DNA of 64,000 bases from Verrucomicrobiia bacterium (GTDB lineage: Bacteria > Verrucomicrobiota > Verrucomicrobiia > Limisphaerales > UBA8199), in NCBI GenBank assembly GCA_035651635.1, contig DASRFK010000152.1, positions 19,505 through 83,504 of the forward strand, in the 5' to 3' direction. The position numbers and the translations under genes are program-made. Shown here piece by piece: positions 42,103-62,923 of this stretch. The first letter of the stretch is position 1, and each line of letters starts with the position of its first letter. The notes beneath the pieces are model-generated. The model had not been told where the DNA came from, did no database searches, and saw only the letters and a program-made list of their open reading frames with translations.

Positions 42103-42117
42103 AGGGGATGGTCTATT

Positions 42118-42873: not shown

Positions 42874-42922
42874 CGTTTCACGACCTCCTTAGGAATTCTG
42901 TGTGAGGGGATTCGCTAGGAAC

Positions 42923-43049: not shown

Positions 43050-43146
43050 TTAGGGAGCTGCACCCAGAGGCGTTGGGAGAGTTCAACAGGCCTTAAAGAA
43101 GTGAAAAGACGAGCACCAAAACTCGGGCACCGCGACCGGTACCAAA

Positions 43147-43658: not shown

Positions 43659-43739
43659 TCGAAAAGCGCCAAAGCTCCTGGATCGAGGCCCACATCAGAA
43701 TTGTTCCAGAACCAATTATGGTTCCGGGCATGTGATTGG

Positions 43740-44000
43740 ATGTTAAAAATCACGCTAACCATTCAGGGAGACTATGCCGTTTTCCTTTTGAGTGGTCGGA
43801 TTGAAGACAACAATATATCCGACTTAGAAAGCCTGATAAGGGCTGAAAAACGGCGAGTCGCCCTGGACTTGGCAGAAGTGACCATTGCGGGGCGGTCTGG
43901 GGTCCGATTCCTGGCGCAATGCGAGGAATCGGGCATAAGAATCCAAAACTGCCCGGCTTACATTCGCGAGTGGATTTCTCGAGAACGGGGTGCTTCGTGA
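43740..44000 (+). CDS. small STAS-like (anti-sigma-antagonist-fold) protein
   Basis: MLKITLTIQGDYAVFLLSGRIEDNNISDLESLI..RVALDLAEVTIAGRSGVRFLAQCEESGIRIQNCPAYIREWI. The assignment is by pattern only. Confidence 0.4.
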   Translation: MLKITLTIQGDYAVFLLSGRIEDNNISDLESLIRAEKRRVALDLAEVTIAGRSGVRFLAQCEESGIRIQNCPAYIREWISRERGAS

Positions 44001-44534
44001 GCCCTGAAATCTCGACCAACATCTGAACTTCTTGGGCGAGTAATCTGACATGGGCAGTTAAATAGCGGCCTCCACGGGCTGGTCATTTCGATTCGTTTGG
44101 GCCACCAATTTTCGCATCCTCCAGAAATCCTCGACAAAACGTCAATGCGGTATGAATGTGTACCCTGATCCCCTACCGGCAAACGCTGCCACGCACCTAA
44201 TGTGACAGGTCGCAGGTCTTCTCGCCAGCCGCCGCTATCCACCTGAACCAGGTTCCTTAAACTGGGATAAAAGCCTGAAGAGGAATCCCATTTTCTCTTG
44301 ACCATTTTTCGGCTGAATTCTGGCAGTTAGATCTAGATCGCTTTTCCTCATGCCCGAGCATTGGCCTATTTTATTAAAAATATCGCACTACTGAGGTGAC
44401 AAGAGAGGACACGAATGAAAGAAACAGCGCGCCCTTCAGGGTGATGGTTACGGGCTGTCGCTCGAAGGTGCGTCGGCAGCCGATCTGATCGGCCGCTGCC
44501 GGAAAGCAAAAAACTGAATATTTGATGAAAAGGA

Positions 44535-46619
44535 ATGGACAAGGATACTTCATTTAAACACAAAGTGGCCCTTGTGACGAGTGGCACTTGCGGAATTGGC
44601 GCAGCCGCAGCCCTGGCGCTGGGCCGGGTGGGAGCGAAAGTGGTTGTAGCCGGCCGGGGCGAAAGCGAGGGCCAGGCGGTGCTGGATGCCATCAAAAAGT
44701 CCGGCGGCGAAGGGACGTTAGTCAAAAAGGATGTCGGCCGTGAGGTCGATGTGAAGGCGATGGTGGACCGGACCGTGGCGGCGTTCAGTCGTTTCGATTT
44801 TGGCTTTAAGCAAGGAATCCGCGTGAACGCCGTGGCCTTCGGCACGGTAGAAATGGGGGTTCTCATCTGGAATTTCGAAGGTGAGATTGTCGAGGCCAAT
44901 GATTCGTTTCTGAAAATGGTGCAATACGACCGTGAAGACCTCGTCAAAGGTCGCGTGCGTTGGACAGATCTGACACCTGCCGAATGGCGTGATCGCGATG
45001 CACGCGCCTTAAACGACTTAAAGAAGGCGGGCACCGCCCAGCCGTATGAGAAAGAGTTCTTGGGGAAACAAGGCAACCGGGTACCGGTGCTAGTCGGTGG
45101 CGCATTGTTCCAGAAAGGAGGAAACGAGGGTGTAGCTTTCGTGTTCGATCTCACAGAACAAAAGTGCGCCGAGAAGGCCTTGCGGCGAAGCGAAGCCTAT
45201 TTGGCTGAATCACAAAAATTGAGCCACACGGGAAGCTGTGGCTGGAATGTTTCCAACGGAGAACTTTTCTGGTCGGAGGAAACTTACCGAATTGTGGGTA
45301 TCGCTCCAACCACCAAGCCGACGCTCGAGTTGGTATGGCAAATCGTCCATCCAGAAGACCGCGACATAGTGCAGCGGGCAATAGATGACGCCGCGAGAAT
45401 CAGTGCAGACATAGATTCAGAGCACCGTATTGTGATGTCTGATGGGTCATTTAAGGATGTCCACCTTGTCATGCACGCAGTCAAGAACCAAAACGGCAAT
45501 CTCGAGTACATCGGTGCGCTGACGGACGTGACCGCGACGAAAAATGCGTTCCGGCAGATTGAAGGATTGAAAGATCAGCTCCAAAGAGAGAATGTGGCGC
45601 TCCGCGAAGAGGTTGATGCAGCGTCCATGTTCGAGGAAATTATCGGCACTTCGGCTCCGTTAAGGGCGGTGTTGTCTCGCATCTCCAAGGTCGCCCCCAC
45701 CGATTCCACCGTTTTGATCACTGGCGAGACCGGCACGGGTAAGGAGCTAATCGCCCGGGCCATCCATAAACGGTCCGCGCGTGCGGGGCAGGCCTTTGTC
45801 AGCGTGAATTGCGCAGCTATACCACCTTCTCTAATCCATTCGGAATTGTTCGGCCACGAAAGGGGTGCTTTCACCGGAGCAATGCAACGGAAACTTGGCC
45901 GCTTCGAACTGGCGCGGGGAGGCACCTTTTTTCTCGACGAGGTCGGTGAGCTCACAGCGGAGACGCAAGTCGCGTTATTACGGGTATTGCAGGAAAATGA
46001 ATTCGAGCGGGTAGGCGGAACACAGCCTATCCGAGCGGACGTGCGGCTGATCGCAGCGACAAATCGCGACCTCAAGGAGGCAATTGCGTCCGGCGCATTT
46101 CGCAGCGACTTGTTCTACCGGCTGAACGTTTTTCCGATCGAAGTGCCGCCCCTGCGCGAGCGCAAAGAAGATATCCCGATTTTAACCGAGTATTTTATTC
46201 ACCGTTTCGCCGGCCGCATGGGGAAGAGACTCTCGGGTATCGGCCGGAAGACATTGGAGTTATTTCAATCCTACCGTTGGCCCGGCAACATTAGGGAACT
46301 GCAAAACGTCGTGGAGAGATCCGTCATCGTTTGCGAGACCGAAACGTTCTCAGTAGATGAAAGCTGGCTCGCGCGACAAGGCCCGCCGACCGAAACCACT
46401 GTCCGTCCGCTGTCTCAGAGGCTTGCGACAGACGAAAGGGCATTGATCGAAGGCGCCATGGCTGAAACACACGGCAGAGTTTCCGGCCCAGCCGGCGCGG
46501 CGGTAAAGCTCGGCATACCAGCCTCCACACTGGAATCGAAAATCCGAGCGCTCAGAATTAACAAACACCAGTTCAAGCTCGCGGCATATCCCGGACCGCT
46601 TTCATATCCTCTCACCTGA
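44535..46619 (+). CDS. sigma-54-dependent enhancer-binding protein (2 PAS + AAA+ + Fis-type HTH) with an in-frame SDR remnant at the N-terminus
   Basis: AAA+ core VLITGETGTGKELIARAIH, GAFTGA (GAFTGA loop), FLDEVGEL, RVGG, RLIAATNRDL, FRSDLFYRLNVFPI, WPGNIRELQN. C-terminal HTH AAVKLGIPASTLESKIRAL. Residues 1-106 look like an SDR with its catalytic core deleted. Alternative start at 44853. Confidence 0.9.
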   Translation: MDKDTSFKHKVALVTSGTCGIGAAAALALGRVGAKVVVAGRGESEGQAVLDAIKKSGGEGTLVKKDVGREVDVKAMVDRTVAAFSRFDFGFKQGIRVNAVAFGTVEMGVLIWNFEGEIVEANDSFLKMVQYDREDLVKGRVRWTDLTPAEWRDRDARALNDLKKAGTAQPYEKEFLGKQGNRVPVLVGGALFQKGGNEGVAFVFDLTEQKCAEKALRRSEAYLAESQKLSHTGSCGWNVSNGELFWSEETYRIVGIAPTTKPTLELVWQIVHPEDRDIVQRAIDDAARISADIDSEHRIVMSDGSFKDVHLVMHAVKNQNGNLEYIGALTDVTATKNAFRQIEGLKDQLQRENVALREEVDAASMFEEIIGTSAPLRAVLSRISKVAPTDSTVLITGETGTGKELIARAIHKRSARAGQAFVSVNCAAIPPSLIHSELFGHERGAFTGAMQRKLGRFELARGGTFFLDEVGELTAETQVALLRVLQENEFERVGGTQPIRADVRLIAATNRDLKEAIASGAFRSDLFYRLNVFPIEVPPLRERKEDIPILTEYFIHRFAGRMGKRLSGIGRKTLELFQSYRWPGNIRELQNVVERSVIVCETETFSVDESWLARQGPPTETTVRPLSQRLATDERALIEGAMAETHGRVSGPAGAAVKLGIPASTLESKIRALRINKHQFKLAAYPGPLSYPLT

Positions 46620-46636
46620 GGCAAGGGGCAAGCTTG

Positions 46637-46838
46637 ATTCGCGAAGTTTCGCGATTTAACGATTTTCGCGATTTTAATTCCGTCGCTTCGAGATAATTCG
46701 CGCCAGTTCCCAGCACCGCTCTTGTGGCTGTCTTCCAAAATCATAGTGAAATCGCAGGAAAAAAGGCCAGCTCCATTGAATTAACGGAACAATTCCAAGG
46801 CGAAGGCTCTCTTCGACCAGATTGGCACTGTTCTAGCA
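46637..46838 (+). promoter_or_regulatory. type II sigma-54 promoter region (three TCGCGA boxes + -24/-12)
   Basis: ATTCGCGAAGTTTCGCGATTTAACGATTTTCGCGATTTT at 46637..46675. TGGCACtgttcTAGCA at 46823..46838. About 140 nt upstream of the 2Fe-2S subunit gene. Confidence 0.75.
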
Positions 46839-46979
46839 ATAGTGACATCGTCGGGCACGTGAAAGGCTCCGGGGTCCACTGAAGCTGGATTTTAGTGTGG
46901 TGTATTTATTTGTGCAGTCTCTCGGCTGCATAGGTGGAACCAAAAACTTTCACGCCGAAGTCGAGCTTCGGCCCACGAT

Positions 46980-47534
46980 ATGAACGAGAGCAAAACAGAA
47001 GAAAGGCAAGGCGACTGGCGCGTGCATTTGAGCATGATGGTCAACGGTGCGCTTCGCTCATTAAAAGTCGAGCCGCGTATGACACTGCTGGATGCATTAC
47101 GTGAGGAATTGGGTCTGACTGGTCCAAAGAAATCATGCGACCGCGGCGAGTGCGGAGCATGTACGGTGCACATCGAAGGCCGGCGCATTCTTTCTTGTAT
47201 GACTCTGGCGGTGATGCACGAAGGAAAGCAGATCACCACTATAGAAGGGTTGGAGAGGGAAGGTCGGCTCCACCCGCTTCAGGAGGCATTCATCGAGCAT
47301 GATGGATTTCAATGTGGCTTCTGCACCTCGGGCCAAATCATGTCGGGGGTGGCGATGATCCAAGAGGCAAAAGCAGGTTGGCCGAGTGCTGCCACACCGG
47401 ACGTTACCAAGCCCTTCACGACGGCCGATCTTTCCGAAGCCGAAATTCGTGAGCGCATGAGCGGTAATCTTTGTCGCTGCTCTTGCTATCCCAACATCGT
47501 TGATGCCGTGGTTGACGCGACGCGAGGGAGTTGA
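46980..47534 (+). CDS. molybdenum hydroxylase small subunit, (2Fe-2S)-binding (PaoA/CoxS/YagT-like)
   Basis: CDRGECGACTV, GFQCGFCTSGQIMS, LCRCSCYPNI. No Tat signal seen. Confidence 0.9.
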   Translation: MNESKTEERQGDWRVHLSMMVNGALRSLKVEPRMTLLDALREELGLTGPKKSCDRGECGACTVHIEGRRILSCMTLAVMHEGKQITTIEGLEREGRLHPLQEAFIEHDGFQCGFCTSGQIMSGVAMIQEAKAGWPSAATPDVTKPFTTADLSEAEIRERMSGNLCRCSCYPNIVDAVVDATRGS

Positions 47535-47537
47535 ACG

Positions 47538-48533
47538 ATGCATCCTTTTACCTATTCCAGAGCGGCGGATCCGGCCGCAGCAATTGCTGCGCACGCTCAA
47601 GATCCTCGCCTCGCATTCATTGCGGGCGGAACCGATCTGCTCGGCCTGATGAAAGACCGCGAGGCGATTCCCGATCGCCTCTTGGACATCAATGGTTTGC
47701 CTCATATGGCGCGCATCGAAGTATTACGCGATGGCGGCGTGCGGATCGGAGCATTGGCTCGAATGAGTGATGTGGCCGCTGATGAAGAGATTCGCCGTCG
47801 ATTCCCGGTGATCGCCGAAAGCTTGTTGTTCGCCGCATCCGGCCAGCTTCGAAACATGGCGTCAATGGGCGGCAACATCATGCAGCGCACGCGTTGTGCC
47901 TACTTCCGCGACGAAGATGACCTTCCTTGCAACAAAAGGAAACCGGGTTCCGGCTGCGCCGCCCGGTATGGTCTCAATCGGCTTCACGCGATCTTTGGAT
48001 GGTCTGACGAATGCGTCGCTACACATCCGTCGGACTTGGCAGTAGCACTTTCGGCCCTGGACGCAGAAGTCGTGGTTCGCGGGCGGAACGGCGATCGGAC
48101 GATTTCGTTCACTGAATTTCATCGCTTGCCGGGGAACACACCGAACCGTGACAACGTGCTTGATCGCGGAGATCTAATTGTGGCGATTGAAGTGCCCCAT
48201 AGGATCGAGGGTCGCGCATCGCATTACCTCAAGCTTCGTGATCGGGAGTCCTACGAGTTCGCTCTGGTATCTGCCGCGGTCGCAGTCGCCACCAATGGTT
48301 CGCGGATCGGATCGGTGCGGCTCGCGATGGGCGGTGTCGCACATAAACCTTGGCGGCTGACCGCGGCCGAATCGGCCCTGCGGGGTGTATCGCTCGATGA
48401 TGTCCAGGCACTCAGAACAGCGATCGCCACGTCGTTTGTAGACGCTCGCCCGCTCGCACACAATTCCTTTAAGATTGAGCTTGCTCAGCGCGTCGCACTC
48501 CGCGCGGTGCAAATCGCAGGAGCACGCGCATGA
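47538..48533 (+). CDS. molybdenum hydroxylase FAD-binding subunit (PaoB/CoxM/YagS-like)
   Basis: 331 aa. FIAGGTDLLGLMK, ASMGGNIMQRTRC, CxxxxC insert typical of the YagS type. Confidence 0.85.
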   Translation: MHPFTYSRAADPAAAIAAHAQDPRLAFIAGGTDLLGLMKDREAIPDRLLDINGLPHMARIEVLRDGGVRIGALARMSDVAADEEIRRRFPVIAESLLFAASGQLRNMASMGGNIMQRTRCAYFRDEDDLPCNKRKPGSGCAARYGLNRLHAIFGWSDECVATHPSDLAVALSALDAEVVVRGRNGDRTISFTEFHRLPGNTPNRDNVLDRGDLIVAIEVPHRIEGRASHYLKLRDRESYEFALVSAAVAVATNGSRIGSVRLAMGGVAHKPWRLTAAESALRGVSLDDVQALRTAIATSFVDARPLAHNSFKIELAQRVALRAVQIAGARA

Positions 48534-50737
48534 ATGCAGTCGGACAACCTCTCTCACGTTTCGACGGACGCCTTAAGGTGACTGGCGCAGCACGCTATAC
48601 AGCAGACATTTCGATTCAAGGCGCGGTTCACGCCTCGTTTGTCTCAAGTTCGATAGCTCACGGCCGGACAACTGCGATCGACACCACTGCCGCCGAAAAA
48701 GCTCCTGGCGTGCTCGCCGTATTCACGCATCGCAATATGCTGCTCATGAATCCGACACCAAAACCTTGGAGTCACCTACATCCGCACGGGCAGTCGTATC
48801 TGCCCCTTCAGGACGACAAAATCCTATACGCTGACCAGCCGATTGCTTTGGTTGTCGCCGGAACGCTTGCCCAGGCAGCCTATGCCGGCACGTTGGTCAG
48901 GACTGATTACGAAGTTCAGCCCCCAGTGGTGTTCGGTTCGCAGACGCTGAAGGACGCCGTTCAGCCTCCGCAATTCCTGTGGCCCGTCTCCTCGTCAGTC
49001 GGAAATGCCGATGCCGCAATTTCGGCGAGCCCTGTTAGAATGAAGCAGACTTACAGCACTTCAGATCGCCACCACAATCAAATGGAACCGCACGCAACGA
49101 CTGCGATTTGGGATGGCGACGGCACATTGACGCTGTATGAAACGACCCAGCACATCTTTGGTTGTCGGGATCTGGTGTCGATCGTGCTCGGCATACCACC
49201 GGAAAAGATTAATGTCGTGTCGCAGTTCCTCGGCGGAGGTTTCGGCGGCAAGGCTTACGTGTGGCCGCACACCCTGCTGACGATTCTCGCCGCAAAGGTG
49301 CTTAGGCGGCCGGTGCGCTTCCAGCTCACACGCGCGCAAATGTATTCAATGGCGGGCCACCAGGCCGCGAGTGTGCAGACAATCGCGCTGGGCGCCACTA
49401 TCGAAGGCAGGCTGAACGGCATCCGCCACGACAGCATTTCGCCGACCGCCGTGTCCGACAACTACATCGAGTATGCGGCCCTTTGCGCGCGCTCCCTGTG
49501 GAGCGCCACTGGCGGCATCGCCACAAATCATAAAATCGTCCACGTCAACCGAAACACTCCGACAGCGCTCCGGGCCCCGCATGAGGCGCTCGGACATTTT
49601 GCGCTCGAAAGCGCGATGGACGAACTCGCGTATGCCACTGGTGTCGATCCGGTTCAGTTGCGCATGCTCAACGATACTGAGGTCGATCCAGACACCGGTC
49701 GTCCTTTCTCTTCGCGTGCTATGCGTAGGTGTCTGATAGATGGAGCGGCGAGATTCGGCTGGGAAAAGCGGACACCCGAGCCGGGCTCAATGCGCCGCGG
49801 TCGTTACCTTCTTGGGCAAGGCATGGCAGGCGCAATCTACACCCATTGGCGCTGGCCTGGACGTGCGCGAGTCACGCTGAACAGAGATGGTTCAGCGTTG
49901 GTTGAGTTGGGGACGCATGAGATAGGTACCGGCACCTACACCGTAATGCAGCAAGTCGCTGCTGACGCGCTTGGACTGCCGTCGCAAAAAGTGACCGTGC
50001 GGATTGGTGACGCCAGGTTACCACAGTCGCACGCAAGTATCGGCTCAGCTACAATGGCTAACGCCGGCGCGTCCGTTATGCTGGCGGCAAAGGCCGCGCG
50101 TGACAAAGCAATCGAGCTGGCTTGCTCCGGGCGTGGCGCGCTTTTCGGTGACGCCAATATTGACGACGTAATCGTTAGAGATGGCAGGCTTGTGCATGCG
50201 AAAAAGAACCTGGAAGTCACCTATGTCGATCTGCTGGCGCGGAACAACCTTCCTTCACTGACGGGCGATGGAAACTACGAGCCAAGCCCCGAAGGAGCGA
50301 AGGCGGTTTTTAGCTTTTCTGCGGTGTTCGCCGAAGTAATCGTCGATCCCGACTTCGGTGTCGTGCGCCTGAGCAGATTTGTCGGAGCTTACGACTGCGG
50401 CCAGGTCATCAATCCAAAGACAGCGCGCAGCCAAGCCATCGGAGGAATAATTTGGGGTATCGGACAAGCCCTGCTTGAACAGTCCGAAACTGACCCCGCG
50501 CTGGGTCGATTTCTTCACCGAAACTATTCCGGCTACCTCGTGCCGACTTCGGCAGATGTTCCAAAGCTCGACGTTGTCTTCGTTGGACAGTTCGACGAGG
50601 AAGCAAGCCCAATAGGGGCCAAGGGCTTGGGCGAACTTACTGCGGTATCAGTTGCGCCAGCAATCGCTAATGCCGTCTATCATGCCACCGGCAAGCGCGT
50701 GCGCGATCTGCCGATCACGATCGAGAAGCTACTGTGA
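48530..50737 (+). CDS. molybdenum hydroxylase large subunit, molybdopterin-binding (PaoC/CoxL/YagR-like)
   Basis: 735 aa. GKARYTAD-type start (VTGAARYTADI), QMEPH, GGGFGGK, HEIGTGTYT, IGAKGLGE. Overlaps the upstream gene by 4 nt. Confidence 0.9.
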   Translation: MNAVGQPLSRFDGRLKVTGAARYTADISIQGAVHASFVSSSIAHGRTTAIDTTAAEKAPGVLAVFTHRNMLLMNPTPKPWSHLHPHGQSYLPLQDDKILYADQPIALVVAGTLAQAAYAGTLVRTDYEVQPPVVFGSQTLKDAVQPPQFLWPVSSSVGNADAAISASPVRMKQTYSTSDRHHNQMEPHATTAIWDGDGTLTLYETTQHIFGCRDLVSIVLGIPPEKINVVSQFLGGGFGGKAYVWPHTLLTILAAKVLRRPVRFQLTRAQMYSMAGHQAASVQTIALGATIEGRLNGIRHDSISPTAVSDNYIEYAALCARSLWSATGGIATNHKIVHVNRNTPTALRAPHEALGHFALESAMDELAYATGVDPVQLRMLNDTEVDPDTGRPFSSRAMRRCLIDGAARFGWEKRTPEPGSMRRGRYLLGQGMAGAIYTHWRWPGRARVTLNRDGSALVELGTHEIGTGTYTVMQQVAADALGLPSQKVTVRIGDARLPQSHASIGSATMANAGASVMLAAKAARDKAIELACSGRGALFGDANIDDVIVRDGRLVHAKKNLEVTYVDLLARNNLPSLTGDGNYEPSPEGAKAVFSFSAVFAEVIVDPDFGVVRLSRFVGAYDCGQVINPKTARSQAIGGIIWGIGQALLEQSETDPALGRFLHRNYSGYLVPTSADVPKLDVVFVGQFDEEASPIGAKGLGELTAVSVAPAIANAVYHATGKRVRDLPITIEKLL

Positions 50738-50779
50738 GTCAGTTACGTTATTAAGGTCCTTAACGGGAGAAGCCGATTT

Positions 50780-51301
50780 ATGCCAATTCACGTCGTGATC
50801 ACTCGTCGTGTTAAAATTGGTCGCGAAGGCGAGTTCCAAGCGGCTTTGCTGGATTTTTTCCAAAAGTCGTTTTCCCAGGACGGCGTTTTGGGGGCCGACA
50901 TGCTCACACCGCCGCCAGGCTCAAACTCTCGCGAATTCGGCCTCCTGCGGACGTTCGCCGACGAGAAAGCACGTGACGCATTTTTCGAGTCCGAAATGTT
51001 CAAAGCTTGGGAGGCGAAGGTGAGAACGTTGACAGAAGGTGAACCGATCCATCGGGAATTGCATGGACTCGAAGCGTGGTTTCGTTCCTCGAGTCCACCA
51101 CCCCGATGGAAAATGTTCATCGCTACATTCTTGGGGGTCTTGCCGGTCGTCACAGTTCTGAATGTGACTCTTGGCCCGGTAATTTTGCCGTGGAATTTTC
51201 TTCTGAGGACTGCGGTCTTTAATGGCTGCATGATCGCGCTCCTGACCTGGGCCATCATGCCAATCATGACGCGGGTCCTTCACAATTGGTTGCGCTCCTA
51301 A
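50780..51301 (+). CDS. ABM-like domain + 2-TM protein (paralog of 38140..38709)
   Basis: MPIHVVITRRVKIGREGEFQ..PPPRWKMFIATFLGVLPVV. Confidence 0.6.
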   Translation: MPIHVVITRRVKIGREGEFQAALLDFFQKSFSQDGVLGADMLTPPPGSNSREFGLLRTFADEKARDAFFESEMFKAWEAKVRTLTEGEPIHRELHGLEAWFRSSSPPPRWKMFIATFLGVLPVVTVLNVTLGPVILPWNFLLRTAVFNGCMIALLTWAIMPIMTRVLHNWLRS

Positions 51302-51545
51302 CAAAGGAAAATGTCATGAGCTTAAAAACTTCTCCTGACTCCCTATTGCCCGAAAAGACCAGTTTTCAGGTTTCGGGCGAAAAATGTAAACGGGCGTTAG
51401 AACCACAAGGAAATCGCATCTCCTATGAAAGGAACAGCTTCGCAACCAGAGCACGGCCTCGTGCTGGGCAGCGGAGCCGCCGGCGCTCGATGCCGCCGGC
51501 GCCGGATGGACTGAACGTCTAGCGCAAAGGCATCGGGAACTGTCC

Positions 51546-52670
51546 GTGAAAGAACTCGCCGCTATTCTCAGCATTTGCTCGCTCCACCCGGAGAACGCGC
51601 TGGCGCTGGCAACATTGGTCAAGGCTTCCGGTTCCACTTACCGCCGTCCGGGCGCGCGGATGTTGATATTGGAAGATGGCGGGTCGGCTGGCTCCGTCAG
51701 CGGCGGCTGTCTGGAGCGCGATTTAATCGAGAAGGGGCAGGTTGCCGCCCGGAAGGGGGAAAGCATCCTGGTGACGTACGACACTTCGGCGGAGGAGGAC
51801 ATCATTTTTGGCGTGGGCCTGGGATGCAAGGGGGCGGTGCATATTCTGGTGGAACCGCTGCGGCCCGGTTCGGCGGCGGAGGAATTGATTTGCTTCATCG
51901 GAAATATTTTCCACCGACGGCATTCCGGCGCGGTAGCGACGATCTTTCAAATCCGAGGCCATGTTCAAGTCCGGTTGGGTGACCGATGGATGTTGGACTC
52001 GGATGGCAAAGTGTCGGGACGCGTGGATGACGAAGTTCTGCGTGCCAAAATAAACGCCGCCACGGTTGAAGCACTTTCGTCGAACCGTTCAAGGACAATG
52101 GAATTCGAACTGCCCGGCGGCGAGGTCGAAGTATTTGTGGAGGTGATGCACCCTCCGGCACCAATGGTGGTTTTTGGGGCTGGATACGACGCGCATCCCC
52201 TGGTTCGCCTAGCCAAGGAGGTTGGCTTTCATGTGACCGTGGCGGATGCCCGTCCGGCTTATGCGCAGGCTGTTCGGTTTCCGGAGGCAGACTCCGTGGT
52301 GGTGGTCCGGCCGGAGGAAATTGCCACGCTCGGGCTAAACCAGCGCACTGCGGTCGTCATCATGTCGCACAATTTTTTGACGGATTTGGGTTTTCTCCAA
52401 GCCGTGCTGCCGCTGAATTTGCGCTACCTGGGTTTGATGGGGCCAAGGGAGCGCACCCTCAAAATGTTGCAGGAATTGCAAGAGGCGGGATTGGAGACGA
52501 GCGAGGATCTGCTGCGAAAAATTCACAATCCGGTCGGTCTGGACATCGGGGCGGAGAACCCGGAACAAATCGCGCTGTCGATTCTCGCGGAAATCCAGGC
52601 TGTTATCACTGGTCGCCCCGGGGGTTTGCTGCGGGAAAAAAAGGGGCCGATCCATGCGCCAACCCACTAA
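51546..52670 (+). CDS. XdhC/CoxI-family molybdenum-hydroxylase maturation factor
   Basis: GTG start. ALATLVKASGSTYRRPGARMLI..GSVSGGCLE..VVFGAGYDAHPL. Confidence 0.85.
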   Translation: MKELAAILSICSLHPENALALATLVKASGSTYRRPGARMLILEDGGSAGSVSGGCLERDLIEKGQVAARKGESILVTYDTSAEEDIIFGVGLGCKGAVHILVEPLRPGSAAEELICFIGNIFHRRHSGAVATIFQIRGHVQVRLGDRWMLDSDGKVSGRVDDEVLRAKINAATVEALSSNRSRTMEFELPGGEVEVFVEVMHPPAPMVVFGAGYDAHPLVRLAKEVGFHVTVADARPAYAQAVRFPEADSVVVVRPEEIATLGLNQRTAVVIMSHNFLTDLGFLQAVLPLNLRYLGLMGPRERTLKMLQELQEAGLETSEDLLRKIHNPVGLDIGAENPEQIALSILAEIQAVITGRPGGLLREKKGPIHAPTH

Positions 52671-53358
52671 AAACTCGAACCCGCCAAGCCCTGCGGGAAC
52701 CGCTCTCATCATTCTCGCTGCAGGCACATCAACCCGCCTGGGCAAGCCCAAACAATTGCTGCCGTTCCGCGGACGAAGCCTGCTGCGTCACGCCGCCGAG
52801 ACTGCTCTGGCGTCGGTTTGTCGTCCGGCGGTGGTGGTTCTGGGCGCGGGCGAACAGCAGCTTAGAACCGAGTTATCGGGGCTGCCCGTCACCGTCACCT
52901 TGAATCCGGCGTGGGCCGAGGGCATGGCTTCGTCCATCCGTGCCGGGCTTGGCACGGTGACATCGGAGGCAAACGACCCGGACTGCGTAGTCATCATGCT
53001 TTGCGATCAACCTTTGATCACCGCCGAGACGCTGGACGAACTGGTCAAAGTCCACCGCAAGGAGAACCAAGGCATCGTCGCCTGCGAGTATGAGGACACG
53101 CTCGGAGTCCCCGCTCTCTTCAGCCGAGAATATTTCTCCGAATTGGCCGGGTTGGCGGGAGACGAGGGCGCCCGCAAAATCATTCTCAAACATAACAAGA
53201 ACCTGTCACGCATTCCTGCGCCGGAAGCCGCCTTCGATGTGGACCGTCTGGAACAGGCTGCGCGGCTGGAAGCTTTGGGCCAGGCCGGATGGTCAAATCA
53301 GACTGTCGAAGGTGAAGGAATGGATTTGCCTCGCCGGAGCACATTCAAAGACATTTGA
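52654..53358 (+). CDS. MobA/MocA-like nucleotidyltransferase (molybdenum cofactor cytidylyl/guanylyl-transferase family)
   Basis: ALIILAAGTSTRLGKPKQLLPFRGRSLL..MLCDQPLI. Overlaps the XdhC-like gene by 17 nt. Confidence 0.8.
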   Translation: MRQPTKNSNPPSPAGTALIILAAGTSTRLGKPKQLLPFRGRSLLRHAAETALASVCRPAVVVLGAGEQQLRTELSGLPVTVTLNPAWAEGMASSIRAGLGTVTSEANDPDCVVIMLCDQPLITAETLDELVKVHRKENQGIVACEYEDTLGVPALFSREYFSELAGLAGDEGARKIILKHNKNLSRIPAPEAAFDVDRLEQAARLEALGQAGWSNQTVEGEGMDLPRRSTFKDI

Positions 53359-53454
53359 GTTCACGATACGACCGTTCAAACCAAAAAGGATTGCTTCGAC
53401 TCCTCGAAGCGCGGGATCAGCGCGACGCGAACCGATTCGGTCTGATTTTGGAAT

Positions 53455-53515
53455 AATGTTTGGCTTGCCAGCCTCGACGCTCGAGTCGAAGATCCGAGGA
53501 CTTAAAAATCGCTAA
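53455..53515 (+). pseudogene. relic of the last ~20 codons of an EBP gene
   Basis: FGLPASTLESKIRGLKNR* parallels LGIPASTLESKIRALRINKHQFK at the end of 44535..46619. Nucleotide similarity continues into the downstream intergenic region. Confidence 0.6.
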
Positions 53516-53597
53516 ACATCAAGTCAAGGCTCCGAGGGACAATTCTTGAAGCCGTCTCCATTCCGTTCTACCCCCGCTTCGACTTGATTTGCGGTTC

Positions 53598-53789
53598 TTC
53601 GCGATTTCGCGATTTTCGCGATTTTAATTTCAGCGCTTCGAGATCAATTCACGTCGGTTCCAGCACCGCTGTTGCGAGCTTTCTTTCAAAATGCCCTTGA
53701 ATTGGCGGAGAAAACTCCCAGTTCCATTAGGTTAACGGGCGAATTTCAAGGCGAAAACTTCCTTCGATCAGGTTGGCATGGGTCTAGCA
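53598..53789 (+). promoter_or_regulatory. type II sigma-54 promoter region
   Basis: TTCGCGATTTCGCGATTTTCGCGATTTT at 53598..53625. TGGCATgggtcTAGCA at 53774..53789. Colinear with 46637..46838. Confidence 0.7.
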
Positions 53790-53909
53790 ATGCTCAAACT
53801 GTCGGGGCGTGTGATAGGTTCCGGGTCCCGCTGGCCTGAGGAACATGTTTTACACACACGAACTAATGAAGATGTCGGTTTTATTTCGAACAAAGAAAGG
53901 AAAAACGCA

Positions 53910-54677
53910 ATGCAAGCACATCAAGAAGATTATTTCGCTTCCTACGGTAATTTGAAGCTGACACGTGACCCTAAAGGCATACTGGTCGCCCAATTCCACA
54001 GCGACGGCGGGCCGTTCGTCATGACCGCGCAATCTCACACGGAATTTGTTGATGCCTTCTACCGGATTTCGCAAGACCGAGCCAACAAGATCGTAATCCT
54101 CTCGGGCGCCGGTGGGCAGTTCATTACTGATGTTGATTGGTCCTCCTTCGGCGATGCCTCCGATCCTGGCGTTTGGAGCCAAGTTCACGACGAAGGTGTT
54201 CAGGTTTTGGAGAATATAGCCAACATACGCGTGCCGGTCATCGCGGCTATCGAGGGACGTGCCCATGTTCACTCAGACTACGCACTGCTGGCCAGCGTCA
54301 TCGTGGCCGCGGAAGGTGCGACCTTCCAAGACGTGGCCCACTTTGTCGCAGGCATTGCGCCCGGTGATGGAGTCTTTACCACTTGGAGTTATCGCGGGGG
54401 GCCGGGACGCGCGGAGGCTTTCCTGATGAATCCTCAGCCATTGCCCGCGCGGATCGCGCAAGAATGGGGAGTGGTTGCTGAGGTTGTTCAAAACGGAAAG
54501 GCTCTCAGTCGGGCGCGGGAGTTGGCTGAATTATACTTGAAAGCTCCTGAAGTGACGCGCCGCAATACGCGTGTCCATTTCATTCAGCCTTTGAAAGAGC
54601 GCATCGTACGAGAGGTTGGCTACGGTCTGTCGCTCGAAGGAGCATCGGCAGCCGATCTTGTGAAATCGAAAAAATGA
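53910..54677 (+). CDS. enoyl-CoA hydratase/isomerase (crotonase) family protein
   Basis: Likely start MQAHQEDYFASYGNLKLTRDPKGILVAQF. ..IVILSGAGGQFI..VPVIAAIEGRA. The ORF-track start at 53778 lies inside the promoter. Confidence 0.65.
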   Translation: MQAHQEDYFASYGNLKLTRDPKGILVAQFHSDGGPFVMTAQSHTEFVDAFYRISQDRANKIVILSGAGGQFITDVDWSSFGDASDPGVWSQVHDEGVQVLENIANIRVPVIAAIEGRAHVHSDYALLASVIVAAEGATFQDVAHFVAGIAPGDGVFTTWSYRGGPGRAEAFLMNPQPLPARIAQEWGVVAEVVQNGKALSRARELAELYLKAPEVTRRNTRVHFIQPLKERIVREVGYGLSLEGASAADLVKSKK

Positions 54678-54984
54678 CTACCGGAAACATAGAAAGAAAA
54701 AATCAAGTTGCGGGCTGCAGGGGAAACACAGGCGGAGCCACTCAGCTTGCCGATTCTGCGGTCGGGTTTTCGTTGGACCTGGATTTGATCTTTTTGTTCT
54801 TGTCCTCATTTCCGGCATTGGCGGCGCGGACTTTAAGCCGATAGCAAAGCAGTCGAGTTCCGTTCCTTAATCCCCAGCAACGGTGGGAGAAGTGCTACCC
54901 ACCGACTGCGGAATCTTGGTGATAGAATGCAAATTGTCGCTCTCCGTATTCAGAAGGCACTCTCCGTGGCAAACGGGTTTAAAG

Positions 54985-56097
54985 ATGATGGAAGGGATTA
55001 CCACACAAACCGAGAAGACCGCCAACCAGCCTGCCGACGTTGGAGCCCCACCGGCCAAACCGGGTTTACCGCCGCCCAGCAAACGCAGGCGCCGGCTGCA
55101 GATTCTCCTTGGCGTGGGCGCCACCATTCTGGTCGCGGGCGCCATCGTCTACTATTTGCTGTTTATCGCTCCTTACGAGAACACCGATGACGCGTTTATT
55201 GAAGGCCACGTCACGTTCGTGAGTCCGCGGGTGTCGGGGCAGGTGGTTCGCTTGCTGGTCCGCGACAACCAGCGGGTTAAGGAGGGTGACCTCCTGGTGG
55301 AGATCGATCCGAGCGATTTCCGGGCGAGAGTGGAACAAGCACGTGCCAATTTGGCGTCTGCGCAAAGCCAGTCGGAGCAGGCCAAGGCCCAGGTGGTGGT
55401 GGATGAGGCCAAGGTAGAACAGCAAAAGGCCGCTGCGACGGCCCTCGAAGCCGAGGCTCTCCGGGCGGAAGCAGACCGGAAACGTTACCTGGACGTGCAA
55501 GGCCTGGCGGTTTCGCAGAGTCAGCGTGATCTCGCGCAAGCGCAAGCCCGTTCTAGTGGCGCCAACGTTGAGGCCGCTCGCCAACAGGTGAAAGCCGCGC
55601 AAGCGCAGGTCTCGCTCAGCCGCGCGAGCGTCGAGACGGCCGCCGCCGGGATCAAACAGGCTGAGGCCAGTCTGGAGTTGGCCGAACTCAATCTTTTCTG
55701 GACGAAAATCGTGGCCCCTGCGGCTGGCCGTGTGGGCCGCCGCACGGTCGAGCAAGGCGCATACCTGCAGACTGGGCAGTCTATGTTAGCCATTGTGCCG
55801 GAGGATGTATGGATACTGGCCAATTTCAAGGAAACCCAATTGACCCACATGCGTCCGGGCCAGCCAGTCAGGATCCACATCGATGCCTATCCCCAGCGGG
55901 AGTATAAAGGCAAGGTGGACAGCTTGCAGCCCGGGACCGGAGCCCGCTTCAGCCTTCTGCCGCCGGAAAACGCGGTAGGCAACTATGTGAAAGTGGTGCA
56001 GCGAGTTCCGGTCAAGATCGTATTCGATGAACCGTTGGATCCGCAGCTTGACATCGAGCCCGGCCTGTCGGTCGAGCCGAAGGTGAGGGTAAAATGA
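54985..56097 (+). CDS. HlyD/EmrA-family periplasmic adaptor of a tripartite MFS efflux pump
   Basis: TM anchor ILLGVGATILVAGAIVYY, then TDDAFIEGHV..ISPRVSGQV, a long coiled coil, and NYVKVVQRVPVKI. Confidence 0.85.
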   Translation: MMEGITTQTEKTANQPADVGAPPAKPGLPPPSKRRRRLQILLGVGATILVAGAIVYYLLFIAPYENTDDAFIEGHVTFVSPRVSGQVVRLLVRDNQRVKEGDLLVEIDPSDFRARVEQARANLASAQSQSEQAKAQVVVDEAKVEQQKAAATALEAEALRAEADRKRYLDVQGLAVSQSQRDLAQAQARSSGANVEAARQQVKAAQAQVSLSRASVETAAAGIKQAEASLELAELNLFWTKIVAPAAGRVGRRTVEQGAYLQTGQSMLAIVPEDVWILANFKETQLTHMRPGQPVRIHIDAYPQREYKGKVDSLQPGTGARFSLLPPENAVGNYVKVVQRVPVKIVFDEPLDPQLDIEPGLSVEPKVRVK

Positions 56098-57680
56098 GCC
56101 CTGCCGGAGATCCAGGGCAAGCGTCTGCTGCGGAGATGTGGCGGCCGCGCGCCAATCCGTGGCTCATCGCGCTGGCGGTGATGCTGGCCACGTTCATGGA
56201 GGTGCTCGACACGTCAATCGCTTCAGTGGCTCTGCCTTACATTGCGGGCAACCTGGGAGCCACCCGGGAAGAAGCCACGTGGGTGCTGACAAGCTATCTC
56301 GTGTCGAACGCGATTGTGTTGCCGGCGAGCGCCTGGTTTTCGAGCGTCTTCGGGCGCAAACGATTTTTGATCACCTGCATCATTATCTTCACCTGTTCCT
56401 CCTTTATTTGCGGGGCCGCCACCAGTTTAGGAATGCTGATCGTGGCTCGGATAGCGCAGGGCGCCGGGGGCGGGGCGCTTCAACCCCTCTCGCAGGCAAT
56501 CCTGCTCGAGAGCTTTCCGCCAGAGCGGCGCGGTGTGGCCACGGCGGTTTTCGGGGTCGGTGTCATATTCGCTCCAATCATCGGCCCGACGCTGGGGGGT
56601 TGGCTCACGGACAGTTATTCATGGCGCTGGGCTTTTTACATCAACATCCCGGTCGGGGCGCTGGCGGTGTTCCTCATTTCTCTGCTCGTCGAAGATCCCC
56701 CTTATATTCGCGCTGCTCGGCGCGGCCGGCTCGACTTGATCGGTTTTGGCCTGGTGAGTTTATGGTTGGCCACGCTGCAGATCACCCTGGACAAAGGCCA
56801 GGAGGTGGATTGGTTTGGCGCGGTCTGGTTGCGCTGGTTCACCGGCATTTCGCTTGTCTCGATGATAGGCTTCATTGCCTGGGAACTCTGGACGCCCGCG
56901 CCGATTGTGAATTTGCGGGTCCTCAAGAACCGCAACTTCGCCGTGGGCTGCGGATTGTACGCCTGCTTCGGCGCCGTGCTCTACGCCATGATCACGTTGC
57001 AGCCATTATTCCTGCAGACCCTTTTGGGTTATAGCGCCTTGGACGCCGGATTGACCGTCAGCCCGCGAGGCCTGGGCTCGCTCCCGGCCCTTTTCCTTGT
57101 GGGGTTACTGATTCGCCGGATCAGCCCCCGCTTCCTTGTGGGGTTCGGTTTCCTGGTGTTCGGATTTTCCAGCCTGCTATTCAGCCGGTTCGACCTCCAG
57201 GTGGCCATGAGCAACATCCTGGCGCCGAACATCCTGAACGGGTTTGGAATAGGGTTAATTTTTGTACCTTTGACCACCATGGCCCTGGGCACGTTGCCCA
57301 ACGACCAAATCGGCAGCGCCACTGGAATTCAAAACCTTCTGCGCAATATCGGCGGCAGCATAGGCATTTCCTTCGTGACGACCATGCTCTCCCGTTACTC
57401 CCAGGCGCACCAGGTCTTCCTGGTGGGGCATGTATCCGAGCTGAACCCGGTGTTCCAGCAGCGATTAGGAGTCCTGCAGGGCGTGTTCCAAGGGAACTTC
57501 GGCCCGCCGGACGCTTTGCTGCGGGCGCAGGCTTCAATCAACAACACTGTGGTCCAGCAGGTAAATTACTGGGCTTTTGTTCAACTATTCTATGTCATCG
57601 CGTGGGTTTGTGCGATCTGCATCCTGGGCGTGCTGCTATTCCGCAGCGTAAAATCCGCCGGCCCCGTCGTGGTGCATTAA
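56094..57680 (+). CDS. DHA2-family (EmrB/QacA-type, 14-TMS) MFS efflux transporter
   Basis: FMEVLDTSIASVALPYIAGNLGA, GRKRFL, RIAQGAGGGAL. ATGA overlap with the adaptor gene. Confidence 0.9.
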   Translation: MSPAGDPGQASAAEMWRPRANPWLIALAVMLATFMEVLDTSIASVALPYIAGNLGATREEATWVLTSYLVSNAIVLPASAWFSSVFGRKRFLITCIIIFTCSSFICGAATSLGMLIVARIAQGAGGGALQPLSQAILLESFPPERRGVATAVFGVGVIFAPIIGPTLGGWLTDSYSWRWAFYINIPVGALAVFLISLLVEDPPYIRAARRGRLDLIGFGLVSLWLATLQITLDKGQEVDWFGAVWLRWFTGISLVSMIGFIAWELWTPAPIVNLRVLKNRNFAVGCGLYACFGAVLYAMITLQPLFLQTLLGYSALDAGLTVSPRGLGSLPALFLVGLLIRRISPRFLVGFGFLVFGFSSLLFSRFDLQVAMSNILAPNILNGFGIGLIFVPLTTMALGTLPNDQIGSATGIQNLLRNIGGSIGISFVTTMLSRYSQAHQVFLVGHVSELNPVFQQRLGVLQGVFQGNFGPPDALLRAQASINNTVVQQVNYWAFVQLFYVIAWVCAICILGVLLFRSVKSAGPVVVH

Positions 57681-60603: not shown

Positions 60604-61413
60604 TCAAAAGAAGAACGTTATACCCAGCAACCCTGTTACGCCGTTGAGACCGAGGTTCGGGTTGCTGATTCCAGCGCAGGACCAATGGACATAACGCGCC
60701 TCCAGGCTGATGGCCATGTTGTCTTTCACGAACCATTGGACTCCCGCTCCCGCCTGGAGGTTGAACTCGAACGTCCCGCTCAAATCAGGAGGCCCGATGC
60801 TCGTGGCTGTCACACCAGCTCCGCCGTCAACAAATGGGATCCACCGTGTTCCCGTTGCAAAGTCGTAGCGCAGGTGCGGCGTCAGACCCACGAGCCATTC
60901 CCTGCTGGGGGAGAATTGGGCGCCGGTGAATAATTCGAGCCGGAATTCCAGGTTGCCCCGATACCAATGGCCCTCACCCCAAACATGGCTCAACATGTGA
61001 CCATACGAGAGAGTGATGAGCGCCAAGTCGTGAGCTTGCACGCTGCCAAAGCTTGAAAAGCCATAGGTGGCCCCGGCGCTTAGACCAAACGAATGCGTCG
61101 TGGACCGAAAGCCTTCGCCAATGCTATGCTCCCATATGCTTGCCTTCTCGGATCCAAGATTGAACTCCTCCGTCGATACACTGTTGGTGAGCGGTAGCAT
61201 TGGGTGTGCGCGGGCCTCCAACGGGGCCGCCGCCCCGGCGCACAAAACCGAGTCGTTGAAGAAGTTTATTAATCCCGAATCGGCACTTGTGAGAGCCGTA
61301 CTTGCCTGCTGTTGTTCCGTCCGAAGGTCACCGCCGGCTATGGCACTCAGTGATGGATTGACCGCGGCTAGCAAGAGGGCGGCTGATATTGTTCTACAAA
61401 TTGTTTGTTTCAC
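60604..61413 (-). CDS. PagL-like acyloxyacyl hydrolase / outer-membrane beta-barrel protein carrying a borrowed N-terminus
   Basis: GTG start. C-terminal two thirds have alternating beta-strand pattern, H.S motif VHWSCAG, and C-terminal GITFFF. The first ~53 aa are near-identical to the SYLF gene at 61976..62506. Confidence 0.5.
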   Translation of the reverse strand: MKQTICRTISAALLLAAVNPSLSAIAGGDLRTEQQQASTALTSADSGLINFFNDSVLCAGAAAPLEARAHPMLPLTNSVSTEEFNLGSEKASIWEHSIGEGFRSTTHSFGLSAGATYGFSSFGSVQAHDLALITLSYGHMLSHVWGEGHWYRGNLEFRLELFTGAQFSPSREWLVGLTPHLRYDFATGTRWIPFVDGGAGVTATSIGPPDLSGTFEFNLQAGAGVQWFVKDNMAISLEARYVHWSCAGISNPNLGLNGVTGLLGITFFF

Positions 61414-61560
61414 ACTCTGGTTTTCCAGTTTTTTGGTTTAATTACATCCGTGAACACATTCTGTTTGAACTATTCCGTCCACTGTTGTTTTGAACGATTC
61501 GTCTTTTTGCTTCTTTAAGCCTTTGTGAATTTCCCGACGCCTCTGGGTCTAGTTCGCTGA

Positions 61561-61687
61561 TGCTAGACCCGTGCCAAAGCGGAGCTGCAGGGAATCAGAT
61601 GGATCAGCCTGAAAAATCCAATGCCTGAGAAGCGCTTCGTGAGTCAACTTGCGATACTTCGAGGATTCGCGACGTTTCGCAAAAAAG
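61561..61687 (-). promoter_or_regulatory. type I sigma-54 promoter cassette
   Basis: Minus-strand TGGCACgggtcTAGCA at 61561..61576. Boxes (minus strand) TTTTTGCGAAACGTCGCGAATCCTCGAAG at 61657..61686. Confidence 0.75.
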
Positions 61688-61975
61688 TTATCGAACGAGC
61701 CTCATCTCGGCCATACCGTTCCCGGTGAGACACGAATGACTCGGCCAGCAATGGCCAGAGTCGATTGAGTTTTAAGGGAAGCGCGGCCAAGGGCTCTTCC
61801 CAGGCCGCGCTCCATTGCGCGAGTCTGTTATCCCGGCGTCCTTGGCGACAGGCAACGGATAAGGGATCTTGAACTCAACTGTCTCCTCGAGAAATTGGGC
61901 ACCTCGTTGGAACGAAAAAGTCTCACAAACTCTTGGACATCAATTTCGCGTGTCCTGCGAGCGACCGGAAGCAGA

Positions 61976-62506
61976 TCAGTCTAACGGCTTATATTTGAAC
62001 TTTTGGCCACCGATTGTCGCCTGGACCATCAGCCCTGTTCTTGGAAGGGTGAACACCGTCACACCGCTCTTATACCTGGTATTTGCCGCTGCACCGTCCG
62101 CAGCGGCAACGGCACTCACTTCCGCGCTCATTTCAAAATTGCTTTGTTTGAAGTTTGACAACGCCTCGGGGGTCTCGAAGAAAATAACTTCGTAGAAGGA
62201 TTGGCCTCCGGCCTGCGGTCCAACGTTGACCTCTGTGAGTGTGGCTTCCCCTATAGGCTTTCCTTTTTCGTAGAGGACCCCTTTCCCACGCTCACTAATA
62301 AGGCCTCCCTTGCCGACGCTAGGGAATACGACGAAACCAACCGAGCCGTTGAAGAAGTTTGTTAATCCCGAATCGGCACTCGTGAGAGCCTTAATTGCCC
62401 GCTCTGCTTCCATCCGAAGATCGTCGCCGGCTATCGCGGTCAGTGCGGGATTGACCGCAGCTAGCAAGAGGGCGGCTGATACTGTGCTGCGAATTGTTTG
62501 TTTCAT
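61976..62506 (-). CDS. SYLF-domain (Ysc84-like, COG2930-type) secreted protein
   Basis: Signal peptide. GFVVFPSVGKGGLI..GKGVLYEKGKPIG..VGPQAGGQSFYEVIFFETPEALSNFK..NFEMSAEVSAVAA..GGQKFKYKPL. Confidence 0.6.
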   Translation of the reverse strand: MKQTIRSTVSAALLLAAVNPALTAIAGDDLRMEAERAIKALTSADSGLTNFFNGSVGFVVFPSVGKGGLISERGKGVLYEKGKPIGEATLTEVNVGPQAGGQSFYEVIFFETPEALSNFKQSNFEMSAEVSAVAAADGAAANTRYKSGVTVFTLPRTGLMVQATIGGQKFKYKPLD

Positions 62507-62650
62507 ACCTCGTTTTCAAGTTTTTGGCTTTAGTTACATCAGTCAACACATGTTTTCTAAACTGTTTCGTCGATTATTGTTTTGCACCATTCGTCTCTTC
62601 CCTTCTGAGGCTTTGTGAATTTACCAACGCCTCTGGGTTTAGTTCGCTGA

Positions 62651-62778
62651 TGCTAGAGTTGTGCCAAGTGGAGTTGCAGAAAATCTGCCATATCAGCCTG
62701 AAAAAAACCAAATGCCTGAGACGAGCTTCGTAAGTTAACTTGCGAAGCTTCGAGAATTCGCGACGTTTCGCGAAAAAG
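62651..62778 (-). promoter_or_regulatory. type I sigma-54 promoter cassette
   Basis: Minus-strand TGGCACaactcTAGCA at 62651..62666. Boxes (minus strand) CTTTTTCGCGAAACGTCGCGAATTCTCGAAG at 62748..62778. Confidence 0.75.
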
Positions 62779-62923
62779 TCCATCAAGCTAAATGCTGACA
62801 CAGGCGCATCAAATGAATGATTCGCCTGAAGACGAAACCATTCCTGAAGGTTTGTCCCCCGAGGGTTTGTGTGGCACTTATAATTGTAGTTTGTCGAAGC
62901 ACGGAATCACGCCGAAATGCAAA

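Follow-up and report, generated by a model that had tools for sequence, protein, structure and literature searches.

The window analysed here, a 64,000-nucleotide (nt) stretch of contig DASRFK010000152.1, contains two copies of a single regulatory region, arranged as direct repeats on either side of a ~6.5-kb molybdenum (Mo) hydroxylase operon (46980-53358). Copy A (46502-46881) begins with the 3' end of an intact gene for a sigma54 enhancer-binding protein (EBP) and leads into the predicted promoter of the operon, and copy B (53452-53833) begins with a dead remnant of such a gene and leads into a predicted promoter ahead of a crotonase-family gene. Judged from the alignments, it is essentially certain that copy B is a true paralog of copy A and that the two share common descent. 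As to how they arose, the reading that we favour, with a probability of roughly 0.55, is that one rearrangement interposed the Mo operon between an EBP gene and the crotonase gene, and in doing so displaced one EBP 3' end.

Homology and layout of the two copies

The copies are collinear and ~380 nt long each. When 42000-47200 was compared to 52600-56200 using blastn, two matches joined them: 46633-46881 with 53583-53833 (74.6% identity over 252 nt, E=1.9e-39) and 46504-46548 with 53454-53498 (77.8% over 45 nt, E=1e-4). The offset between the copies is 6950 nt in both matches, and MAFFT alignments were concordant. A first-pass annotation of the window had proposed that 53455-53800 resembles 46510-46850, and this pairwise alignment bears it out; all of the blocks listed there were also found (the TCGCGA boxes, GCTTCGAGAT, GTTCCAGCACCGCT, CCATT..TTAACGG, CAAGGCGAA and the promoter). 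Two details needed adjustment. The boxes described as a TCGCGA triplet are present, but as an array of four positions per copy of which one is degenerate, a different one in each copy, and the gap between TGGCAY and CTAGCA is N4 rather than N5, corresponding to the canonical TGGCAY-N5-TAGC spacing.

Each copy has the same order of parts, namely the EBP 3' end (~45 codons), a four-position TTCGCGA array, a ~150-nt spacer, a sigma54 promoter and a leader of ~45 nt. The homology runs unbroken from the part encoding the helix-turn-helix (HTH) through the tail, stop codon, upstream activating sequence (UAS), spacer, promoter and leader, in line with the earlier proposal that the end of the EBP gene was duplicated along with the promoter region. 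Within the window, 46549-46632 and 53499-53582 appear unrelated (27% identity in the tail segment) because the window's EBP has another allele of the 3' end, here called alpha, than the remnant in copy B, called beta. The features of both copies are given below, with L092 and L093 denoting related metagenome contigs and L093A and L093B the A and B copies of the latter.

46502-46619, + strand: coding part of copy A, intact EBP 3' end (alpha allele, L092-like); contains the blastn match of 46504-46548 to 53454-53498
46633-46685, + strand: UAS of copy A; TTCGCGA boxes at 46638, 46648 and 46665, degenerate TTAACGA at 46656
46686-46822, + strand: spacer of copy A; conserved blocks GCTTCGAGAT, GTTCCCAGCACCGCT, CCATTGAATTAACGG and CAAGGCGAA; 88% identical to L093A and 71% to copy B
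46823-46838, + strand: predicted sigma54 promoter A, upstream of the Mo-hydroxylase operon; TGGCACTGTTCTAGCA
46839-46881, + strand: conserved leader of copy A; homology between the copies stops at its end (blastn)
53359-53451, + strand: spacer preceding the stub, without EBP homology (35-38% identity, the random level); hairpin at 53393-53410
53452-53587, + strand: dead EBP stub of copy B; ~136 nt, last ~45 codons of a beta-allele EBP
53588-53635, + strand: UAS of copy B; degenerate TTTGCGG at 53588, TTCGCGA boxes at 53598, 53606 and 53615
53636-53773, + strand: spacer of copy B; conserved blocks as in copy A
53774-53789, + strand: predicted sigma54 promoter B; TGGCATGGGTCTAGCA
53790-53833, + strand: conserved leader of copy B; homology between the copies stops at its end (blastn)

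The regulator-gene stub in copy B

The stub translates as FGLPASTLESKIRGLKNR followed by a stop codon, as the first-pass annotation had it, and the intact EBP of the window ends in LGIPASTLESKIRALRINKHQFKLAAYPGPLSYPLT and a stop codon, with LGIPASTLESKIRALRINKHQFK in its terminal part. The remnant is larger than the ~60 nt estimated earlier, as ~136 nt (53452-53587), or ~45 codons, derive from an EBP gene. An extra A in the run at 53504-53508 shifts the reading frame (shifted reading LKIAKHQVKAPRDNS) and a premature TAA is found at 53513-53515, while the original frame is regained by the loss of 1 nt at 53547/53548 and leads to the original TGA at 53585-53587. The stub thus reads IMFGLPASTLESKIRGLK, the extra A, IAKHQVKAPRDNS in the shifted frame, the 1-nt deletion and finally KPSPFRSTPAST before the stop codon, to be compared with the end of the intact EBP on L093, IMLGLPASTLESKIRGLKINKHQFKAPADNSSKPSPFRSATAST and a stop codon. 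The 141-aa open reading frame (ORF) that contains the stub has no Pfam match, and its EBP-derived part is confined to the ~45 codons of the gene's 3' end. Without an AAA+ domain with GAFTGA in an intact frame, the stub does not qualify as an EBP and is a non-functional pseudogene remnant.

The closest relative of the stub is not the EBP gene of the window itself. The C-terminal 50 residues of the L093 EBP match 53441-53584 (E=1e-11), and 53452-53833 aligns with L093 3802-4183, comprising the intact EBP end and the promoter downstream of it, in one high-scoring segment pair (83% over 385 nt, E=4e-106), so that the HTH-coding part is included in the match and the outcome that would have refuted the earlier proposal did not occur. 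Overall, the stub is nearer to the intact EBP 3' end of L093 (82-96%) than to that of the window (27-60%), as broken down by segment below.

Stub segment: L093A vs window B 82%; window A vs window B 60%
Post-HTH tail up to the boxes: L093A vs window B 91%, L093A vs L093B 96%; window A vs window B 27%
Boxes: L093A vs window B 88%; window A vs window B 83%
Spacer: L093A vs window B 78%, L093A vs L093B 90%; window A vs window B 71%

The extra-A frameshift is common to all three known B copies (the window, L093B and that of a further contig, L087), and decay of the stub therefore predates their split. The stub starts abruptly, 93 nt past the stop codon of the MocA cytidylyltransferase gene. Neither alignment nor a search with the L093 EBP C-terminus gave credible EBP homology 5' of 53452, the identity there being 35-38%, as for random sequence. 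A terminator in this preceding spacer was considered and rejected, since no T-run follows the hairpin at 53393-53410 on the + strand and folding gave a z-score of -0.2.

The enhancer-binding protein and the mosaic structure of copy A

The gene of which copy A contains the end was annotated as follows.

44535-46619, + strand: sigma54 EBP gene; Pfam Sigma54_activat (3.6e-71), PAS_3, PAS_9, adh_short over aa 10-88 and a weak HTH_8; GAFTGA at 45864

The protein is a chimera, in which an N-terminal fragment of a short-chain dehydrogenase/reductase (SDR) is fused in frame to a PAS-PAS-AAA+(GAFTGA)-HTH architecture, with the fusion point at ~44800-44853. Its first ~100 residues consist of SDR fragments: aa 1-93 are 59% identical to an SDR encoded on contig L089, and are followed by a 'IRVNAVAFGTVE' motif. 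The EBP orthologs are longer (at least 943 aa for P0122 and at least 1311 aa for L093) and contain a GAF domain and a large N-terminus that are absent from the window EBP. The SDR-EBP chimera was also found in a second sample (P0121). Truncated at its N-terminus, the protein might be constitutively active.

At the 3' end, the EBP genes fall into two alleles, alpha in the window, L092, L097 and P0122, and beta in the L093 EBP and all three stubs. The coding part of copy A is 94% identical to L092, 73% to L093A and 60% to copy B (stub segment). Along the gene, the identity of the window to L093 is 91-96% over 45640-46340 and drops to 73% and 55% over 46440-46640, while the identity to L092 stays at 87-91% up to 46681, where the homology to L092 and L097 ends; from the spacer onward, copy A is again L093A-like (88-93%). 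By these identities copy A is mosaic, and its crossover falls within the TTCGCGA boxes or just past them; this explains why the stretch from the HTH to the boxes looks unrelated within the window.

A second gene-end stub was observed just upstream of the SDR fragment, where 44422-44490 holds the last ~23 codons of a crotonase gene. It is 95-98% identical at the nt level to the crotonase ends of relatives and 90% to that of the window's own crotonase gene, and together with the SDR fragment it reproduces the crotonase-SDR order of L089 and L097. A further copy of the crotonase 3' end is located after the SDR gene of L097 (1898-1949).

Predicted promoter and binding-site array

The pattern TGGCAY-N4-YTAGCA has six matches in the window, all within 41.9-62.7 kb, where 0.83 would be expected. 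In both promoters A and B the -24 GG and the -12 GC are found at canonical spacing, the -12 TAGC being one deviation from TTGC, and these elements are kept in the relatives (TGGCATGGGTCTAGCA in copy B of L087 and TGGCATGGATCTAGCA in L093B). The box array begins at the EBP stop codon and is the best conserved non-coding segment, with 94-97% identity among the three B copies and 83-88% between A and B. In copy B the boxes (53588-53621) lie 153-186 nt upstream of the -24 element, inside the range of ~80-200 nt that applies to activator sites. The only EBP encoded in the window has the GAFTGA motif.

From these features we infer that the non-coding part of copy B drives the crotonase gene as a promoter dependent on the EBP and on sigma54, for which a transcription start near 53800 and a leader of ~110 nt are predicted. 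The window EBP (44535-46619) would bind the TTCGCGA boxes in both copies, and binding at both would co-activate the Mo-hydroxylase operon and the crotonase gene. Two results weigh against this assignment of function: no RpoN box was found within the window, and HTH_8 in the EBP scored below the Pfam cut-off (19.6 bits vs 22). A structured RNA or riboswitch in the leader was rejected as no Rfam family matched at the gathering threshold in 41000-64000.

Arrangements in related contigs

The order of stub, promoter B and crotonase gene is found in three independent assemblies, i.e. the window and two Joint Genome Institute (JGI) contigs, L087 (1.1 kb, ~90% identical) and L093 (14.8 kb, ~92%). Both JGI contigs carry MocA, stub, promoter B and crotonase, and the 5' boundary of the stub is the same in all three. 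A second arrangement was found on L092 (JGI, 3.2 kb), encoding an EBP ortholog with a GAF domain (88.5% nt identity to 44853-46681 of the window) followed by alpha-type boxes, an unrelated spacer of ~150 nt, a predicted sigma54 promoter (TGGCACGAATTTAGCA) and crotonase, with no Mo operon. The 61-kb contig L097 starts within the same EBP 3' end and continues with crotonase and an SDR gene, also with no Mo operon. In the third arrangement, L090 and L091 follow the window with ~90% identity on either side of a junction that joins 42109 to 53892 across 37 nt, and are without 42110-53891 (11.8 kb), that is, without an ORF of unknown function, the promoter at 43034, a DUF2934 gene, the chimeric EBP gene, both copies and the Mo operon. 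Their crotonase gene stands behind a TGGCACGAATTTAGCA promoter that shares its boxes with the divergent promoter of an isochorismatase operon. Each of these three sigma54-associated arrangements is present in at least two independent assemblies, and assembly chimeras are therefore unlikely. Crotonase genes of ~90% identity are moreover encoded on L002, L003, L088 and L089 with neither a sigma54 promoter nor an EBP remnant.

The first-pass annotation had suggested looking in related genomes for an intact EBP gene upstream of crotonase. L092 and L097 do have an EBP ortholog in that place, but among the contigs recovered no relative had two EBPs, and none showed a complete second EBP between MocA and crotonase. 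In a scan of GTDB genomes using the EBP, the best relatives reached 55-66% identity, and a homologous promoter region was present in none of them. A metagenome scan using the shared 20-mer CGATTTTCGCGATTTTAATT gave one true relative, L087; its three other matches were in AT-rich unrelated DNA and were rejected as chance. The contexts of the crotonase homologs P0014, P0020 and P0056 held no EBP, stub or sigma54 promoter, and the MocA homolog P0251 belongs to a different two-subunit Mo enzyme, on a contig that stops just past MocA. Upstream of the crotonase start, the leaders of eight loci share homology over only the last ~20 nt, which is uninformative on the direction of copying.

Origin of the two copies

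In the favoured interposition, a fragment consisting of an EBP 3' part, its promoter and the Mo operon would have entered an older EBP-promoter-crotonase unit, with homology in the EBP and control region as its anchor and an illegitimate junction at 53451/53452; a circle integrated in Campbell fashion would lead to the same outcome. The old EBP 3' end would be left downstream as an orphan stub. The window EBP would later have gained its alpha (L092-like) 3' end by recombination, with the beta allele preserved in the stub. Taken as one event, the interposition would account for the repeats around the Mo operon as well as for L092 and L097, where EBP and crotonase are adjacent without the Mo operon; such adjacency may therefore be the older state and the Mo operon a later arrival. 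Compared at third codon positions, the Mo genes of the window and L093 are ~92% identical, crotonase 81% and the EBP body (to 46439) 85%, corresponding to a divergence of ~7.5% in the Mo genes and 15-19% in the flanking EBP and crotonase genes, a contrast that weakly supports the interposition.

Several points weigh against this reading. The relatives are a handful of metagenome contigs and may represent paralogous rather than orthologous loci, and neither a donor locus nor an intermediate was found among them, the order of events being our reconstruction. The spacer and the proximal promoter TGGCACGAATTTAGCA of L092 and L097 differ from those of copy B, so these contigs do not represent a simple empty site. 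At the stub boundary the window and L093 show no sharp step in identity (88% before the stub and 87.5% within it, sliding window), and codon constraint, instead of a separate history, could account for the smaller synonymous divergence of the Mo genes.

The first-pass annotation had derived the control region of crotonase from a locus in which an EBP gene was followed by the Mo genes; the shared control region holds, but the direction does not follow, given that EBP and crotonase stand together without the Mo operon in L092 and L097. Its alternative, that a second EBP gene once stood at this position, comes closer to what L092 and L097 present, with EBP beside crotonase, though none of the contigs recovered showed a complete second EBP between MocA and crotonase.

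One rival account would have a ~380-nt duplicate of copy A land in front of crotonase, with no EBP gene ever present at 53.4 kb. It would fit the abrupt start of the stub so soon after MocA and the lack of any further EBP remnant, the many contexts in which ~90%-identical crotonases occur without sigma54 promoters (L002, L003, L088, L089), and the two promoter modules at 61.5 and 62.6 kb of the window, which were likewise copied together with the first 56 codons of their downstream genes. We nevertheless consider it unlikely, as L092 and L097 have an EBP ortholog immediately upstream of crotonase and the unit thus exists independently of the Mo operon, as a separate event would be needed to place crotonase beside the Mo operon, and as the direct-repeat geometry around that operon would be a coincidence.

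Improbable as well is a history in which EBP-Mo and EBP'-crotonase units stood in tandem and EBP' was later deleted except for its last 45 codons. EBP-crotonase units do exist in L092 and L097; the decayed stub, with its two indels and stop codon, is common to three lineages, so the loss would be old; and with the same box array in both copies, one EBP could serve both. This account would require at least two events, juxtaposition followed by deletion. The contigs recovered include no relative with two EBPs and no partial intermediates, and the 5' boundary is identical in the window, L087 and L093.

Finally, it is scarcely credible that shared binding motifs together with a conserved HTH helix, or an assembly artefact, only mimic homology: although the helix LGIPxSTLESKIRSLKI is conserved across >100 acidobacterial EBPs and boxes plus promoter recur six times in the window, the ~380 nt of fixed-offset homology include the non-motif spacer and leader and rule out a lack of common descent, the post-stop tail is 91-96% identical to that of L093, L093 and the stubs have 'IRGLK' and 'KHQxKAP' as specific features, and three assemblies, independent of one another and made from different samples, show the layout.

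Neighbouring genes and other repeats in the window

The genes on either side of copy B, all on the same strand as the repeats, are listed here.

46980-53358, + strand: Mo-hydroxylase operon; 2Fe-2S, FAD and Mo (PaoC/XdhA-like) subunits, ABM protein, XdhC and MocA cytidylyltransferase
53910-54677, + strand: crotonase-family gene, first downstream of promoter B; Pfam ECH_1, homologs at 85-98% identity
54883-59821, + strand: genes for HlyD-like, major facilitator superfamily (MFS), cytidylate-kinase-like and outer-membrane efflux proteins

A 'Candidatus Acidoferrum sp.' metagenome-assembled genome encodes a crotonase with 93% identity to that of the window, and on this basis the source was taken to be an uncultured acidobacterium. 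Whether the efflux genes are co-transcribed with it is uncertain; the gap between them is ~200 nt and contains weak terminator-like hairpins at 54750-54782, and on L093 crotonase is followed by the isochorismatase operon and not by efflux genes. The match of L090 (10975-11344) to the HlyD-like gene breaks off after the initial ~370 nt (54883-55251), placing a breakpoint inside a coding region.

Four further promoter modules, of a related 'subtype 1', are located at 41780-42030 (- strand), 42900-43150 (+ strand), 61450-61700 (- strand) and 62540-62790 (- strand). They are homologous over ~200 nt spanning boxes, spacer, TGGCAY-N4-CTAGCA and leader. In the 61.5- and 62.6-kb modules the homology also takes in the first 56 codons of a PagL-like (60604-61413) and a Ysc84-like gene (61976-62506), which have 75% aa identity there but are otherwise unrelated. 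At 42086-42101 the window has TGGTACAACTCTAGCG, a degenerate homolog of the TGGCACGAATTTAGCA promoter ahead of crotonase in L090, L092 and L097, and this sequence precedes the ORF of unknown function (42061/42118-42873), which has no Pfam or NCBIfam match. A paralogous fragment of an isochorismatase operon relates 1-800 of the window to 37259-37558 and 41198-41497 (73-81% nt identity); more than one copy of such modules is therefore present in the genome, so that some of the 'relatives' could be paralogous loci. Other internal repeats, of 86-139 nt with 89-91% identity, were found in the upstream half of the window between 10698-10836 and 20588-20726 and between 23220-23305 and 29429-29514 (plus 33183-33213).

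Regulatory modules and rearrangement

The locus is a rearrangement hot spot, with at least six arrangements among ~90%-identical sequences, and is relevant to the inference of operons and regulons from single metagenome contigs. In several cases homology breaks off at the box array or the -24 element (46681; 42109; the -24 box between L092/L097 and L090; the switch from beta to A in L093), although alignment ends are drawn to conserved motifs and these positions are uncertain by about a motif length. A tentative and rather doubtful extension would be that dispersed TTCGCGA-box/sigma54 modules belonging to one EBP regulon are themselves the substrates of recombination by which operons are shuffled, with stubs left as scars; if so, the Mo hydroxylase, crotonase, isochorismatase operon and efflux genes would move into and out of the regulon.

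The locus would provide an example of one sigma54 activator gaining a second operon, with the control region copied en bloc in the course of a rearrangement and the stub of the activator gene, as a scar, dating and orienting the event. It also supplies, for an uncultured acidobacterial lineage, a candidate regulon and, in the TTCGCGA repeats, a candidate array of binding sites.

Comparison with known systems

Sigma54 (-24/-12) promoters are activated from upstream sites by bacterial EBPs of the NtrC/NifA/FhlA type. By its sequence the promoter qualifies as a sigma54 promoter, and the locus resembles such systems in its GG and GC spacing, its upstream repeat array and its adjacent AAA+ activator with GAFTGA and a C-terminal HTH. 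It differs from typical sigma54 promoters in having TAGC instead of TTGC as the -12 element, and in its UAS, where a 6-bp palindrome, TCGCGA, is repeated in tandem at 8-10-nt spacing. A literature search of limited scope on Acidobacteria, sigma54 and EBPs returned nothing on TCGCGA-type UASs or acidobacterial EBP regulons.

The growth of regulons by segmental duplication of promoter or operator modules is a general concept, and the window agrees with it in having four subtype-1 and two subtype-2 modules (copies A and B), homologous within each subtype, within 22 kb ahead of unrelated genes. Unlike mobile promoters resembling miniature inverted-repeat transposable elements (MITEs), the modules have ragged ends that run into differing neighbouring coding sequence. 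A mobile promoter related to MITEs or insertion sequences was rejected on the absence of terminal inverted repeats at the module ends and on the location of these ends inside different neighbouring genes.

The closest geometric parallel is the displacement of C-terminal (3') gene ends in the effector loci of Rhs, contact-dependent inhibition (CDI) and type VI secretion systems (T6SS), which has been proposed to proceed via homology-facilitated illegitimate recombination (PMC5361080, citing Jackson 2009 and de Vries & Wackernagel 2002). As in those loci, an intact gene is accompanied by an orphan 3' fragment in the same orientation downstream, beside what would be its original partner, and the putatively interposed DNA opens with a homologous gene 3' part; L092 and L097, with no Mo operon, may represent relatives without the insert. 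The displaced gene here is in contrast a transcription activator and not a toxin, the orphan is accompanied by a promoter and an operon in place of an immunity gene, and there is a single displacement instead of an array, with a mechanism read from geometry. The locus is thus no new kind of element but an instance of two known processes, duplication of a regulatory module and displacement of a gene end, and as such a case of fairly ordinary genome evolution.

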